A stretch of 64,000 nucleotides of DNA, taken from the UHGV virus genome UHGV-1375844; one strand, written 5' to 3'. This document shows, piece by piece, positions 39,046 through 44,682 of the stretch. The position numbers and the translations under genes were made by a program. This stretch comes from a virus. Position 1 is the first letter of the stretch; each line of letters starts with the position of its first letter. The notes beneath the pieces are model-generated. The model made no database searches. It saw nothing but the letters and a program-made list of their open reading frames with translations, and had not been told where the DNA came from.

Positions 39046-39066
39046 GATAAGTAAGTCATTACTTAT
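39046..39066. promoter_or_regulatory. dispersed palindromic motif copy (GATAAGTAAGTCATTACTTAT)
   Basis: Between the PhoH start and the plus-strand AT-rich gene. Confidence 0.5.
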
Positions 39067-39205
39067 TTATCGTGGCTTTGTGCTAGGTTAAAACAGCTTT
39101 GGGGAGCTGGTGCGCTTAAGGCCTTCCAGAAAACTCAAACTAGCTGAAATAGTAGGGTCAATTAGGTATCATTCCTTTTCAAATTTAACCAAAGACTCTT
39201 ATAAA

Positions 39206-40438
39206 ATGCCTGCTTTGTTAATTCTCATAATTGGGACATTGATGATTATTTTCTGGGATGTGATTAAGGAAAACGTAGAGGTTATAGGTACGCTTGCCAC
39301 TTCACTTGCCTTTTTTGCTACTGCCTGGGCTGCTTACGAGGCAAGGCATAGTGCAAAGGCGGCAATGAAGGCGACCCAGCTGACGGCTGATTCACTTCTT
39401 GAAATGAAAAAAGCCTCTTTTAAGGAGTGGTACGGCATTTTACTTGAACAGCATAATAAATTACTTGAGGATGTTAATAAGACCTTATTGGATGACAATG
39501 AACTTAATACCAGGTTGAATATTAATGTCATAAGAGGTATTTATTATCACGTAACCAAAAATCCTGCTTACATTAAGTATATTAATCACATAATTTTAAT
39601 CCTGAATTATGTAGATAAAGACTTTTATCTGCCGTCCTCGGCGGAAAATGAAAAGAGATCTTATATAGAACAGTTGCGCAACAGCATTAGCCCAAAAGTA
39701 AGCCTGCTGATTGCTATTTTTGGCCTTAATATCGACAATAATAAAACTTATGATGCAAAGAAACTTTACAACCTTCTAAGCAAATATAACTTTTTTGAAA
39801 ATGAGCTATTTTTTGAAGTTGCAATATCAAAAGTTCATTACTTAGACACTTATGTCGCCGAGATATTTGACAAAGAATACCGAAAAGACGTTGAATTTTA
39901 TGTTGATGAAACGGTTTGTGGTCGTGCGCTCTCTTTTATCAATACGACATGCCGACACCATAGGATTACTTTCGCAGTTCAGTGGTCTTACAACAACCCC
40001 TGCCAAAAGCATTTGCTGAAAAGATTCAATGACCTACCTATGCACATGAGAAACGTCATTGGGCTGAACATGGAAAAAGCAGCCGAGAAAGTGGCTACGT
40101 TTAATTCTGAGTTGCCTGGTTTTGTCGGCTGGGAAATTAAGATTGCTAATAATAAGGTGAGAGTAATTAAGGATGAAAAAGAACTGAAAAGGCTAATAAA
40201 GCTTTACTATAAATACCCCTTTGACCCTCGACAAACTGGTATCGTGTTAACCAATGGTTTCACCAATAGATTCGCCGATGAGATTAGGAATAGTATGTCT
40301 AGCTATGCTTTACATAAAGCCTATCTAGAACTCAGCTCTAATCCGAACAAAGATCAGGTAATTGATGAGATTGTGTCAGAGGTTGAAAAAATGGTCGATA
40401 AATTTAAAACAGAACTTAATTCTTTCTGCTTTAACTGA
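39206..40438 (+). CDS. membrane-anchored protein of unknown function (two N-terminal TM helices plus ~350 aa domain); AT-rich moron
   Basis: Hydrophobic segments MPALLILIIGTLMIIFW and VIGTLATSLAFFATAWAAY; plus strand; visibly AT-rich; followed by terminator. Confidence 0.5.
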   Translation: MPALLILIIGTLMIIFWDVIKENVEVIGTLATSLAFFATAWAAYEARHSAKAAMKATQLTADSLLEMKKASFKEWYGILLEQHNKLLEDVNKTLLDDNELNTRLNINVIRGIYYHVTKNPAYIKYINHIILILNYVDKDFYLPSSAENEKRSYIEQLRNSISPKVSLLIAIFGLNIDNNKTYDAKKLYNLLSKYNFFENELFFEVAISKVHYLDTYVAEIFDKEYRKDVEFYVDETVCGRALSFINTTCRHHRITFAVQWSYNNPCQKHLLKRFNDLPMHMRNVIGLNMEKAAEKVATFNSELPGFVGWEIKIANNKVRVIKDEKELKRLIKLYYKYPFDPRQTGIVLTNGFTNRFADEIRNSMSSYALHKAYLELSSNPNKDQVIDEIVSEVEKMVDKFKTELNSFCFN

Positions 40439-40638: not shown

Positions 40639-41250
40639 TTACGATTTGCCGGCGTTAACTACCACGCCCTGGCGACGAGAGTCAGCTTCGGCAATCTTCA
40701 GTCGAGTTTCGCGTTCGGCCTTCAGCTCGCCCTGCAATTGGGCCACCTGCGACTCAAGGAACTCGATACGAGAGTCTTTCGCGGCGCTGGATGCGTTCAG
40801 TTCCGCCATTTCCACACGATGATCAGACTTCAGCTGGTTGACTTCCGCAGTAAATTTGCTGGCAGCTGCGCTATAGCCAGCTTCGCGAGCTGTGTTAACC
40901 GCCTCTTCGTTGTTGTCCAGCGCGTTTTCAAGATCGCGCTTAAGCTGAGTCAGCTCGACGTTGGAAATGCTGGCCAGACCGCGCTTCTTCATCAGATCCG
41001 CAAGTACGCCATCTTCGTTTTCGATTACCTTCAGACGCAGTTCCGCAGCCTTTTCTCGCTCTTTACTTGCGAACTGGCTATCCAGACCAGCCAGCTCAGC
41101 CTGGCGATATTCAATTTCTTCGGCCAACGTAACGCTGGTTTGTGAAAGGGTGTTCAGCTCGGTCGCAACCTTCGCCATATCACCGGCAGCTTTAACCATT
41201 GCTTTGGTGGAACGCTCAGTTAGGGAGATGACTTTCTTAACTTCGGACAT
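40639..41250 (-). CDS. coiled-coil protein of unknown function
   Basis: Heptad-like, charge-rich sequence throughout. Confidence 0.4.
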   Translation of the reverse strand: MSEVKKVISLTERSTKAMVKAAGDMAKVATELNTLSQTSVTLAEEIEYRQAELAGLDSQFASKEREKAAELRLKVIENEDGVLADLMKKRGLASISNVELTQLKRDLENALDNNEEAVNTAREAGYSAAASKFTAEVNQLKSDHRVEMAELNASSAAKDSRIEFLESQVAQLQGELKAERETRLKIAEADSRRQGVVVNAGKS

Positions 41251-41275
41251 GTGTTTTCCTTCGTCGCTTTTATAT

Positions 41276-41362
41276 TGGCGGAAGGTAATGGAATCGAACC
41301 ATCACCGCGCTCGCAGTGGGACGGTTTTCAAGACCGCTTGAGCACCATGCTCCCTACCTTCC
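41276..41362 (-). tRNA. tRNA-Ser (anticodon TGA), type II with long variable arm
   Basis: Hand-folded: 7 bp acceptor GGAAGGT/ACCTTCC, anticodon loop CTTGAAA, T-loop TTCGATT, encoded CCA. Confidence 0.7.
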
Positions 41363-41604
41363 GTTATTTAGTGTGGTGGCCGGCGCTGATCTCCGGCATA
41401 ACAACCCGACTTAAATTCGCGACTTTAAATCGGTTCCTCCGTTTGTCCACTTTAGCCCGGAGTTAGCAACCTCAGTCACTCACCGATATGCCTATCGGTG
41501 GCGCGCATCAGCCTGCGCATTCACCACAACGGTGAGAGCACTCTTGGCGAACCTGTAGATTGGGCTATGATCCCGTTACAAGCGAATGCTCTTACCTGTT
41601 GTGT

Positions 41605-41737
41605 TGGTGCCGGTTAACGGACTCGAACCGTTGACCTCTGGCCTAACATCGGATCGTTGTCATTGACCAGCCATGCTGTCTACCGAAGTAGAAACGATGC
41701 TTTGGCTCTCGCGCTCTACCAACTGAGCTAAACCGGC
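41605..41737 (-). tRNA. tRNA-like gene with ~57 nt insertion between D-arm and T-arm (possible pseudogene or interrupted tRNA)
   Basis: Canonical acceptor GCCGGTT/AACCGGC, D-arm TAGCTCAGTTGGTAGAGC, T-arm AACGG-TTCGAGT-CCGTT and CCA, but 133 nt long and no canonical anticodon arm found. Confidence 0.4.
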
Positions 41738-41739
41738 AT

Positions 41740-41814
41740 TGGCGATGATGGGTGGATTCGAACCACCGACCAGTTGATTAACAGTCAACCGCTCTACCAC
41801 TGAGCTACACCATC
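41740..41814 (-). tRNA. tRNA-Asn (anticodon GTT)
   Basis: Hand-folded cloverleaf: D-arm GCTC/GAGC, anticodon arm GTTGA-CTGTTAA-TCAAC, T-arm GGTGG-TTCGAAT-CCACC, encoded CCA. Confidence 0.8.
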
Positions 41815-42533
41815 AATTTCGCAGCGGTACTGGCTTCAAAGATGAAGTTTTCCCGCAACTTGCACTTTGCGTTAGTGCCAGACGAGGCTTGCGGCTCGCT
41901 CAAATAGAGCGAAGATCTTAAACACTGCTCGGTGCTTCAGAGAGCGCCGGGGAGTCAGATCTTATTGGATGTATGGAATCATCCGTGTTGTGGCAGCTAC
42001 ATGCTAAAACCAGAGGGTATTACTATTGCCACAACGTTGAGGCCACTAAACCAGTAATGTTTGCCCAACATCTTTGTCAGTCGCTACAGCCTCTGTGGAT
42101 TCACCTGTATGATTGAAAGAAACAGTGGCCTCAACGTTGTGTGCTGGCTAACCAGGCCAGCCGGGTTACGTCGCCGATCTTCTTTAACCCAAGACAAAAC
42201 GACATAAGTAATGGAAATGACGTAACAGGATGAACGGTCGATAACTGAAACCGGGATAGGTGAATGGAATGAGGAAACCAACCGCCCATCCTGTTACTTC
42301 ATCGGAGAGGGCATGGGTGGTGCCGTATCATGCCCTCTCCTGCGTTCTGCAATCACACTCGCTCAGTGTGTCCCATTTCGGTGACGAGGCTGGAAACTGA
42401 CCTCGCTGGTGTTTGGCTTATTATGCTACTGCCAGATACTGATTGTCGTTTGCAGTTATCTTTAAACGTTCAAACAGTCGCGTACTAACGAAAACAAAGC
42501 AATCTTATACATATCATAAAAATAAGTAAATAC

Positions 42534-43194: not shown

Positions 43195-43360
43195 GATCAT
43201 CATTAACCCCCTGCAACTTATCAGTAATATCAATGATGCGATAAATGCGCCCTCTTCTCTGCATGATGCCCTCTTTCACGTAATCATTGAGACAACTACT
43301 CATCACCATGCTGCCGATAACAATCCCCAACCCCAAAAAAGCAATCATCCAGCCAAGCAT
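43187..43360 (-). CDS. small membrane protein (~57 aa, below track cutoff)
   Basis: Hand-translated MLGWMIAFLGLGIVIGSMVM...; TGATG overlap with the ligase stop. Confidence 0.3.
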   Translation of the reverse strand: MLGWMIAFLGLGIVIGSMVMSSCLNDYVKEGIMQRRGRIYRIIDITDKLQGVNDDHA

Positions 43361-44682
43361 CATTCCTTGTCTCCTATGCGATCTTCCGTATCACGTAAGC
43401 AGCGCGGCCACTTCAATCGAGGGTGACGCAAACTACCGTCTGGCGTTTTCTCGTGACAGTGAACCTCTACAATGCGCCCGCGATACTTCTCCTGATTGTT
43501 CCAAATTTCATCCAGGTAACGGTGCTTTATGCCACTGGCTCGAACGACAACTCCATTCTCCAGCCGGATAACGATTTTCCCCAATGTATGTGCAAAACCA
43601 GAGTCCGGATCGCCTGGCTCGAAGTCGATAATTTCCCCGTCTTCAGAGTCTTCGTCTTTTAGCTTCCACCAGCTGCGGGAGCGCTTAAACTCATAAACAG
43701 AATCCGGATCTTTGCCCATCTCCCCTTCTTCATTGTCATCGAGGCGTTTCATAAAGCGCTCAATGAAGTCTTCATGGCTATGGATTATGTAGAACGGGTG
43801 CAAATGGATGTCCGGTGCATAGTCTTCACCGCGGGTGTTTCTGAACCATGCCACCAGCGAGGACAGGCGTTCTTTCAGCTTCATGCCCGTCTTCGCATAT
43901 TCTTTTGACTTAGCCAGAGAGCGCCATTCCGGCAAGAAGAAGTCAAAAATGTGATAGACCGCGCCGATCGCTTTTACGTTTTTCTTCCGCAGCGCGGAAA
44001 CAGACTGATTGAACGAACCTGCAGTTCCCTCTCCATCAAAGAAAATGTGTTTGTGGCCAGTGAGTCTCCCCAGCTCTAACATGGCCGGCTTTAAGTGATC
44101 GAGCGAAGTGATCGGGTTGCCTGTACGTGAAAGGAAATTAACCTCTTCCTCATCGACAATGACCTCACAAATGACGCGCAGCCCATCCAGCTTGAGGCTG
44201 CCGATCATTGGCCATTTTGCCTTCGGATTTGGCTTGAACGGATATTTGTCGCCTTTCTCCTTATATGCTGTTGCCAGCTGCACCTCGAACTTGGGAATTG
44301 GGGTTTCAAATACCTTGTTGCATAAACTTATGCCAACGCCGGCTTTCGGATCTTTGAGCAGAAAGCGGCGAAAAACATCCTGCCCATCAGCGCACATCGA
44401 GGCCACAATAGACTCAACGGCAGTGATGGCCGCATTACCGGTTAGTTCGCGTGCTGCGAGTTTCTCCAGTAACTCAACTGCCTTTTCATCGCTTGGAACC
44501 GACTGTTCCAGCGGCATGGCCACTTTATATTTCTTTACCCCGAATCGAATAAACGGGTTGAGCATCAGCGAAACCATGCTCTGTTCGAAAGCATCCATGC
44601 TGGCCAATGCCTCTTTTTTGGCATTGGTTCCCATCGTTTTAATGGCATCCAGCTTATGCTTCAAGGCGATCAATTTTTCCAT
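43360..44682 (-). CDS. ATP-dependent DNA ligase
   Basis: Adenylation motif I GSLKLDGLR and ligase fold size (440 aa). Confidence 0.85.
   Translation of the reverse strand: MEKLIALKHKLDAIKTMGTNAKKEALASMDAFEQSMVSLMLNPFIRFGVKKYKVAMPLEQSVPSDEKAVELLEKLAARELTGNAAITAVESIVASMCADGQDVFRRFLLKDPKAGVGISLCNKVFETPIPKFEVQLATAYKEKGDKYPFKPNPKAKWPMIGSLKLDGLRVICEVIVDEEEVNFLSRTGNPITSLDHLKPAMLELGRLTGHKHIFFDGEGTAGSFNQSVSALRKKNVKAIGAVYHIFDFFLPEWRSLAKSKEYAKTGMKLKERLSSLVAWFRNTRGEDYAPDIHLHPFYIIHSHEDFIERFMKRLDDNEEGEMGKDPDSVYEFKRSRSWWKLKDEDSEDGEIIDFEPGDPDSGFAHTLGKIVIRLENGVVVRASGIKHRYLDEIWNNQEKYRGRIVEVHCHEKTPDGSLRHPRLKWPRCLRDTEDRIGDKE

Follow-up and report, generated by a model that had tools for sequence, protein, structure and literature searches.

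A family of phage-borne tRNA-shaped RNAs in which a conserved four-way-junction module occupies the place of the anticodon arm

Stable RNAs that resemble tRNAs have been recognized in phage tRNA clusters since T4. RNAs C and D of this phage (rnaC and rnaD; species 1/2) are 139 and 119 nucleotides (nt) long, are encoded inside the tRNA cluster and are of unknown function; rnaC has a tRNA-like T arm and terminal stem. Mimics in which the anticodon arm has been replaced are known also: both the tRNA-like domain of transfer-messenger RNA (tmRNA) with its helix 2 and the Y RNA YrlA exchange the anticodon stem for a long irregular helix that leads to further structure. An artificial equivalent is the engineered tRNA scaffold for the production of recombinant RNAs, which accommodates a structured RNA in place of the anticodon stem-loop so that the chimera undergoes tRNA-like processing and stabilization (Ponchon and Dardel; cited in PMC3753655). 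A gene of this general kind was analyzed in UHGV virus genome UHGV-1375844, in a stretch of 64,000 nt that is referred to here as the window. The locus at 41737..41605 on the minus strand is a phage gene for a 133-nt RNA with a full tRNA body and a folded 74-nt module instead of an anticodon arm.

The element has exactly the same architecture as the tRNA scaffold, but the scaffold is a laboratory design whereas the element occurs in nature, has been conserved and seems to have passed from one tRNA body to another by recombination. The T4 RNAs C and D are its closest classical analogs in kind and are not homologs: they do not possess a complete D arm and acceptor cloverleaf of the element's type, their folds are unrelated, and a covariance model of the element's family (R1) applied to the T4 tRNA region retrieved ordinary tRNAs only and not rnaC or rnaD. 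In terms of position the nearest counterparts are the trnT genes of P1 and P7 and the tRNA-Thr gene of Cyrano, which share the same slot 2 nt past tRNA-Asn and the same L-shaped body with an encoded CCA. Unlike trnT, the element is unable to decode ACA or to replace a cleaved host tRNA. The type V-A RNA anti-CRISPRs (Racrs) are likewise phage-encoded small RNA mimics of host RNA, but consist of solitary near-full-length CRISPR repeats. Thus, the kind of RNA is already known; new here are the module with its four-way junction, the cassette-like manner in which it has spread and the range of phages that carry it. The family is apparently undescribed, as it is absent from Rfam 15, in which only the generic tRNA model matches the element, and is annotated solely as 'tRNA-OTHER'. 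Searches by keyword and core sequence located no published description of this RNA in the searchable literature, most subscription journals being outside reach.

Architecture of the tRNA body and the replacing module

The RNA has its 5′ end at 41737 and its 3′ end at 41605, and subtraction of an RNA position p from 41738 yields the window coordinate; all of the parts described in this section are on the minus strand. A 7-bp acceptor stem (GCCGGUU/AACCGGC) is formed by p1–7 (41731..41737) and p123–129, and is followed by UA and then by the D arm at p10–25 (41713..41728; GCUC-AGUUGGUA-GAGC). The columns of the D arm are near-invariant in the family alignments and its helix was recovered by RNAalifold, and U8, A14 and G18G19 in the D-arm and core region are kept across the family. 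On the other side of the module, comparative alignment places the variable loop AGGUC (p101–105) and the T arm AACGG-UUCGAGU-CCGUU (p106–122) at 41616..41637. Three of the five T-stem pairs covary and the GGUUC..A..CC residues are invariant. The 3′ strand of the acceptor stem is read directly from the sequence at 41605..41615 together with the discriminator A and encoded CCA (p130–133).

The element therefore displays the canonical tRNA cloverleaf in its 7-bp acceptor stem, D arm, T arm and core nucleotides. The Rfam tRNA model aligned to 41737–41608 (model positions 1–71) with a score of 46.7 bits compared to a gathering score of 29 and with E = 8.3e-07 over the whole 64-kb window; the alignment includes a 72-nt insertion in place of 15 model positions of the anticodon arm. 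An earlier sequence-only reading of this DNA described canonical acceptor stem, D arm, T arm and CCA sequences, and both direct reading and the Rfam score bear out this description. The reading also had put the separation at ~74 nt where ~17 are expected, and the figures are exact: G26 and the variable loop are separated by 74 nt (p27–100; 41638..41711), an excess of 57 over a 17-nt anticodon arm. As that reading stated, no standard anticodon stem-loop can be drawn: the module contains neither a 5-bp anticodon stem with a 7-nt anticodon loop nor any other 7-nt loop. ARAGORN made no call on the element, though both neighboring tRNAs were called, and so a normal 76-nt tRNA was not predicted here.

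The 74-nt module is kept in ~21 distinct homologs, in which it measures 74–80 nt. Throughout the family it comprises an irregular helix with bulged adenines that leads via an A-rich internal loop to a 6-bp helix and from there to a four-way junction with three short hairpins. The base of the arm is formed by a 5′ strand at p27–34 (CGAGAGCC; 41704..41711) and a 3′ strand at p95–100 (GGCCAG; 41638..41643) that includes the C98-A99-G100 triplet. C27 pairs with G100, G30 with C98, and G32–C34 with G95–C97, with G28 facing A99, and A29 and A31 bulged. All five of these pairs show double-sided changes in a model-based alignment, including replacement of G30-C98 by A-U in one lineage (L027; loci are denoted here by L numbers), and conservation reaches 90% or more at C27, A29, G30 and G100. 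The internal loop places p35–37 opposite p93–94. The distal helix beyond it joins p38–43 (GCAUCG; 41695..41700) to p87–92 (CGAUGU; 41646..41651), as indicated by comparative alignment and RNAalifold; it is 100% paired, and its pair 39/91 occurs as GC, CG, GU, AU and UA.

The three hairpins differ in how they vary. Hairpin PB (p46–59; 41679..41692; UCUAC-UUCG-GUAGA) has five stem pairs that are all unvarying in 21 sequences, with a tetraloop that appears as UUCG, GUAA, UCCG, UUAG or CUCG. In hairpin PC (p60–70; 41668..41678; CAGC-AUG-GCUG), the closing pair C60-G70 is invariant and the remaining pairs covary, three of the four pairs having double-sided changes. Hairpin PD (p71–79; 41659..41667; GUC-AAU-GAC), which was delineated by comparative alignment, has an A-rich loop of 3–5 nt, and its U72-A78 pair is replaced by G-C in three lineages. 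The junction strand AACGAUC (p80–86; 41652..41658) follows, in which A80–A84 are invariant, and U44-U45 are able to pair with A80-A81 at the junction. As the CGAU motif is duplicated (p82–85 and p87–90), AUCG at p40–43 pairs in two registers that are isoenergetic by prediction (−34.8 versus −34.9 kcal/mol). The distal register is in agreement with the covariation at 38/92 and 39/91 and with changes from U-A to U-G at 41/89, and a single A-C mismatch in Escherichia phage Jgk1 speaks to a slight degree against the proximal one. By minimum free energy (MFE), the isolated module adopts the consensus structure with −20 kcal/mol. A single-sequence MFE fold in which CUGGUC pairs with GGCCAG was discarded as this pairing is unconserved in Pseudomonas phage Littlefix and other members.

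Homologs, covariation and exchange of tRNA bodies

Homologs were collected from phage, plasmid, viral-contig, metagenome and metagenome-assembled genome (MAG) sets, and a core-motif scan of IMG/VR, JGI metagenomes and GTDB brought the total to ~21 distinct sequences. Their sources are phage-plasmids of the SSU5-like and P1-like types, N4-like phages that infect E. coli or Pseudomonas, viral contigs of jumbo size and a MAG of the betaproteobacterium Orrella, and the contigs range in length from 2 kb to several hundred kb. Full-length homologs are present in phage Jgk1 (85% identity) and in the schitovirus Littlefix (77%), and Salmonella plasmid NZ_KP763470.1 carries an identical 133-nt copy. 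Every member has a 7-bp acceptor stem of differing sequence, a D arm and a T arm, and CCA is encoded only in some. The element is infrequent: it was detected in 11 of the 72,556 plasmids in PLSDB, among which ~600 have an ordinary trnT in that slot, in three of 50,697 phage records, and in six of 5,426 complete E. coli genomes, on plasmids in every case. The RefSeq annotation of plasmid pDETEC87 by the Prokaryotic Genome Annotation Pipeline (PGAP) assigns 'tRNA-OTHER' to exactly the same interval. A second search pattern based on a 3′ motif recovered 110 stretches and no new true members and, therefore, the core is near-invariant wherever the RNA exists. No instance of the module outside a tRNA body was found in the phage, viral-contig, metagenome and GTDB scans. 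Apart from three lineages that are described below, the element is situated within or next to accessory tRNA arrays, and this holds for phages that differ widely.

Family membership of the window copy was assessed with a covariance model (R2) that was built from 11 non-enterobacterial members only. The copy matched this model over its full length (model positions 1–135) with 135.6 bits and E ~4.5e-29, compared to ≤52.8 bits for ordinary tRNAs. Thus, the feature is far beyond chance. The R1 family model scored the window copy at 147.7 bits. The best ordinary tRNAs under both R1 and R2 were the tRNA-Thr(UGU) species of Cyrano, T4 and P1, with a margin of 1–3 bits over tRNAs for Phe, Asn and Ile.

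Base-pairing was monitored in two alignments. In a plain MAFFT alignment, 94.7% of cells formed standard pairs, compared to 32–47% when the partners were slid by 1–3 columns, 19 pairs were changed on both sides, and none of 500 shuffles reached the observed scores. The model-based alignment, which leans toward the structure supplied by the analyst, yielded 98.7% paired cells and 21 double-changed pairs, including the five pairs of the arm base. The acceptor stem was changed on both sides in all seven pairs with 98.6% of cells paired. Applied to the unbiased alignment, RNAalifold recovered the acceptor stem, the D and T arms, the distal helix and hairpins PB, PC and PD. When the helices of the module were considered alone, 95.8% of cells were paired compared to 29–47% with slid partners, and neither the covariation score nor the count of cells changed on both sides was attained by any of 500 shuffles. 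The five double-change pairs in these helices are a weak measure of covariation because 63 of the 500 shuffles reach that count.

The module is the most conserved portion of the gene. Mean pairwise identity among representative lineages rose from 39% for the acceptor stem and 65% for the T stem to 80% for the module core, 32 of whose 56 columns are invariant. The invariant sites at the four-way junction are U44-U45, the junction-proximal base pairs, AACGA, C60-G70 and G71-C79. Since variation is seen in the PB tetraloop and also at the ends of PC and PD, it is at the junction that the invariant nucleotides gather.

The same module is carried by more than one type of tRNA body. The phage-plasmids have a Thr-derived body, and the N4-like phages an Ile-like body: the scaffold of Jgk1 (acceptor stem GUCCGUU/AACGGAC) is homologous to a tRNA-Ile(AAU) in the same slot of Gamaleyavirus SP5M (acceptor stem GUCCGCU/AGUGGAC). 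Thus, the module behaves as a transferable cassette. A related rearrangement was observed in the Shigella virus Moo19 (L142), in which the feature annotated as 'tRNA-Ile' at 1163–1235 combines the 5′ half of tRNA-Ile(GAU) with a 3′ half of the element type, the intervening 1.1 kb being deleted. The hybrid demonstrates that recombination between tRNA-like repeats occurs at this locus, and is itself probably a non-functional deletion product because its acceptor strands are unpaired and ARAGORN rejects it.

Three lineages are located outside tRNA arrays and are without an encoded CCA (L124:2043–2179, minus strand; L139:1827–1967, plus strand; L007:470–599, minus strand). The acceptor stem is extended by 10 and eight contiguous pairs in L124 and L139, respectively, and L007 has an offset 10-bp leader-trailer stalk. 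Therefore, a free NCCA end is not universal in the family, and the flanking pairing suggests an alternative maturation route such as a stalk of the RNase III type.

Genomic setting and neighboring genes

The sequence-only reading placed the element beside two intact tRNAs, and ARAGORN identified both on the minus strand: tRNA-Asn(GUU) upstream at 41740..41814 (Rfam score of 75.5 bits) and tRNA-Ser(UGA) downstream at 41276..41362, 242 nt past the element. The spacer between tRNA-Asn and the element is 2 nt, as it is between trnA and trnT in P1. The neighborhood resembles that in phage-plasmids of the SSU5-like type and also the cluster of tRNA genes in P1, P7 and D6. An ATP-dependent DNA ligase gene (43360–44682) and a PhoH gene (38226–39059) are on the same strand as the element, and the order of ligase, small open reading frames (ORFs), tRNA array and PhoH is common to SSU5 and Cyrano. 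The arrays themselves read Asn-Thr in P1, Asn-Thr-Ser in Cyrano, Asn only in SSU5, Asn-element-Ser in the window and Asn-Tyr-element-Ser in pDETEC87. Thus, the element occupies the tRNA-Thr(UGU) slot of the P1 and Cyrano arrays. Its first 27 nt, which include the 5′ strand of the acceptor stem, are identical to P1 trnT and 28 of its last 30 nt match, with the trnT anticodon arm (CCUGC-CUUGUAA-GCAGG) replaced. Scans for promoters and terminators showed no excess over shuffled sequences.

Other features of the array were noted. The tRNA-Ser(UGA) scored 45 bits on the Rfam tRNA-Sec model (gathering score 47), which is the cross-match expected of a tRNA with a long variable arm; it is not a selenocysteine tRNA. 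The 242-nt spacer at 41363–41604 on the minus strand has an MFE of −89.8 kcal/mol (z = −4.4), which was equaled by none of 200 shuffles. The spacer is kept only among the phage-plasmid relatives, is partly similar to P1 upl/plp and does not travel with the element elsewhere; on its predicted folding it may be a second non-coding RNA. On the strand opposite to the array, a 442-residue ORF (39110–40438, plus strand) weakly matched the putative abortive-infection family putAbiC with 18.2 bits, below the cut-off of 22, and its homologs in related plasmids are labeled hypothetical.

Directly downstream of the element in N4-like carriers is a gene of the N4 gp49/Sf6 gp66 family followed by a gene similar to the Thoeris anti-defense gene tad2 (3708–4220 and 4220–4717 in Jgk1, L002; 1781–2203 and 2203–2697 in L027). 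The window has a homolog of the gp49 family at 37631–37996 on the minus strand, ~4 kb from the element and with 58–59% identity, and the gp49-like genes are the only family common to the N4-like carriers and the window. These surroundings hint at an accessory or anti-defense neighborhood and not at a strict partner.

The element is accompanied in certain genomes by further unusual tRNA-like genes. In large viral contigs it is adjoined by over-length genes of ~103–109 nt which have D and T arms and different inserts (L019:677–785 and 792–894, minus strand; L028:1779–1887 and 1893–2001, plus strand; L125:1846–1952 and 1960–2068, minus strand). These genes suggest that tRNA bodies with foreign modules are a more general occurrence in phage tRNA arrays. 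Jgk1 has a 129-nt tRNA-like RNA at 2585–2713 (plus strand), 280 nt upstream of the element, with the acceptor stem UCCAGGA/UCCUGGA, ACCA, a T arm and a long extra arm; the region is conserved and unannotated in many Gamaleyavirus and other N4-like coliphages. Two contigs of unrelated size encode a 92-nt tRNA-Ile(UAU) called by ARAGORN with a long extra arm (L018:7112–7203 and L127:1035–1126, both minus strand), an unusual class-II-like form for an Ile anticodon, and share the order His, Ile-UAU, Asn, Asn, element.

Possible functions and their implications

The element very probably specifies a functional, structured RNA that is processed as a tRNA, does not decode and has the module as its active part. 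Accordingly, the suggestion in the sequence-only reading of a tRNA-derived regulatory RNA stands for the class, with a non-decoding role, and the specific function is a matter of inference. The RNA would be co-transcribed with the neighboring tRNAs, given the 2-nt spacer after tRNA-Asn as in P1, and by extension from the maturation of polycistronic tRNAs would be processed by the tRNA machinery through 5′ cleavage by RNase P, 3′ trimming and CCA repair to a stable product. The module would be the working part, and the RNA would act as a tRNA-shaped ligand because it does not decode and the body is always present. The explanation that is considered best overall, with roughly even prospects of being correct, is a conserved family of phage-borne non-decoding tRNA-shaped RNAs that probably are tRNA-shaped ligands.

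A more specific proposal, which is offered tentatively from sequence features and is less probable, is that the RNA may be a decoy or inhibitor of a host defense nuclease that recognizes the anticodon arm, such as an OLD-type or PARIS-type Toprim enzyme. The anticodon arm is the main determinant for OLD, and phage tRNA-Thr(UGU) genes rescue; accessory phage tRNAs seem largely to serve in defense evasion (PMC12445682). The distorted C27-N-A29-G30/C98-A99-G100 arrangement at the base of the arm would stand in for the paired CNG/CNG cleavage motif of tRNA-Thr(UGU). A decoy is plausible because the element replaces trnT and maintains this distorted motif at ≥90%, and the gp49-like and Tad2-like genes nearby in Jgk1 and L027 also support the proposal.

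Several observations weigh against the ligand explanation and its decoy version. In the OLD study, rescue by the phage tRNAs was due to replacement of the cleaved tRNA, as opposed to competitive inhibition (PMC12445682). The isotype of the scaffold varies and the Thr(UGU) margin is thin, which weakens a story specific to Thr. The CNG-like motif could be a relic of descent or due to chance, as any C-G...G-C spacing yields it. Conservation centered on a junction with free tips is more typical of aptamers or ribozymes than of decoys that bind proteins. When ORFs were clustered over ~30 loci in search of a partner protein, no family was common to all lineages. Maturation in the manner of a tRNA perhaps is not universal, in view of the leader-trailer helices in L124, L139 and L007. 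Finally, every functional step has been inferred.

The main rival, which is possible if doubtful and relies on the modeled structure, is that the module may be a small-molecule aptamer or a self-cleaving or other ribozyme for which the tRNA chassis provides expression and stability. The RNA then would be a natural 'tRNA scaffold', acting for example as a sponge for an immune signaling nucleotide or as a maker of defined tRNA fragments. The clustering of invariant nucleotides at the four-way junction, with three hairpin tips that are free in sequence and length, is in keeping with this option, as are the autonomous folding of the module, the two isoenergetic registers that a switch needs and the Tad2-like signal-sponge gene among the neighbors in N4-like carriers. 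However, no riboswitch or ribozyme family of Rfam 15 matched at E values up to 10, and the module has neither an expression platform nor a candidate ligand. Moreover, as the module never occurs outside a tRNA body, the body is suggested to be part of the function and to be more than a chassis. The Rfam 15 comparison, which encompassed ribozyme, riboswitch and intron families, gave no matches in 41250–42000 at E values up to 10 and none at the gathering score in the window. Weak matches to SpF41, rydB and other Rfam families were dismissed as noise, as was that to YrlA. Mimicry of a host chromosomal RNA was rejected since none of the 5,426 E. coli chromosomes matched the module and the six matches were on plasmids.

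It is highly unlikely that the element is a relative of tmRNA or YrlA that recruits SmpB and the ribosome or Ro/Rsr. The tRNA-like domain with a long irregular helix in place of the anticodon stem is reminiscent of both, and a weak YrlA match (RF02553; 24.2 bits) is located nearby. Nevertheless, this score is well below the gathering score of 69, and what the match covers is tRNA-Asn together with the element's D arm; YrlA has a circularly permuted topology in comparison with the element, which has no Ro-binding terminal helix. E. coli is not known to carry Rsr. In the case of tmRNA, ARAGORN detected none, the alanine identity pair G3-U70 is present in only one of 21 members (L126), the element has no tag reading frame, the D arm is complete unlike that in tmRNA, and a short frame through the hairpin is kept at the nucleotide level and not as coding sequence.

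Equally slight is the prospect that the RNA is a Racr-like decoy which presents a hairpin of the Cas12a CRISPR RNA handle from a tRNA body. Anti-V-A Racrs are proven to exist, and the segment CGUUUCUAC-UUCG-GUAGAC is identical at 13 of 19 positions to the V-A handle AAUUUCUAC-UGUU-GUAGAU, including the whole stem and the preceding UU. By contrast, the validated V-A Racrs, which derive from Moraxella prophages, are identical to the full host repeat at 34–36 of 36 positions, and beyond the handle the element showed no identity to the M. bovoculi repeat GTCTAACGACCTTTTAAATTTCTACTGTTGTAGAT. In addition, A(−18) and A(−19) are replaced, the hairpin is locked in a four-way junction with no free 3′ guide, and the remainder of the module is left without explanation. 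Cas12a is not typical of the known hosts Salmonella, E. coli, E. albertii, Pseudomonas and Orrella. In sequence terms, the likeness of the hairpin GUUUCUAC-NNNN-GUAGA(C) at p43–59 (41679–41695, minus strand) to the Cas12a handle is probably a coincidence in light of these hosts and the structural context.

The two other identities that had been raised in the sequence-only reading fared worst. Removal of the insert as an intron to leave a decoding tRNA-Thr would accord with the tRNA-Thr(UGU) slot, the trnT flanks and insertion at the anticodon arm, which is the site of bacterial tRNA introns. Yet, when any one contiguous segment was excised exhaustively and the product examined for a 5-bp stem and 7-nt loop with U33 and R37, none of the 21 members left a canonical 17-nt arm. 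Furthermore, the trnT anticodon stem CCUGC/GCAGG itself is replaced, the module is conserved well past the needs of an intron, and the insert of 57–74 nt is far below the size of group I introns (~200 nt or more, with P3–P9), with no match to Intron_gpI or another intron family; an intron is accordingly most improbable. A decayed or disrupted tRNA pseudogene devoid of function, for which rejection by ARAGORN, the bare 'tRNA-OTHER' label and the rarity of the element might speak, is just as improbable and already is refuted by the comparative data, as phages of Enterobacteria, Pseudomonas and Betaproteobacteria that are unrelated to each other have the same insert with an invariant core, and compensatory changes are present in scaffold and insert alike.

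Non-decoding tRNA-shaped RNAs with probable ligand activity, the explanation preferred here, bear on how phage tRNA arrays are viewed. These arrays now are thought largely to outflank tRNA-cleaving immunity, and a conserved member that does not decode indicates that they contain more than spare tRNAs. A more far-reaching outcome, to which a low probability is attached, is that the family would represent either the first RNA-based counter-defense by non-decoding tRNA mimicry, in which an arm cassette creates an uncleavable high-affinity trap for a nuclease of the OLD or PARIS type or similar, or a new class of tRNA-borne aptamer or ribozyme. If so, the four-way junction with its invariant nucleotides would amount to a new functional fold of RNA. 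The family is a natural counterpart of the engineered tRNA scaffold, with a structured module that moves between tRNA genes through recombination in the conserved D-arm and T-arm sequences. As a defined RNA of ~130 nt with a structure backed by covariation and a junction that hardly varies, it is open to tests of decoy activity, ligand binding and catalysis. The family also explains a class of 'tRNA-OTHER' annotations, and may inform the 50-year-old question of the role of the 'stable RNAs' in phage tRNA clusters.

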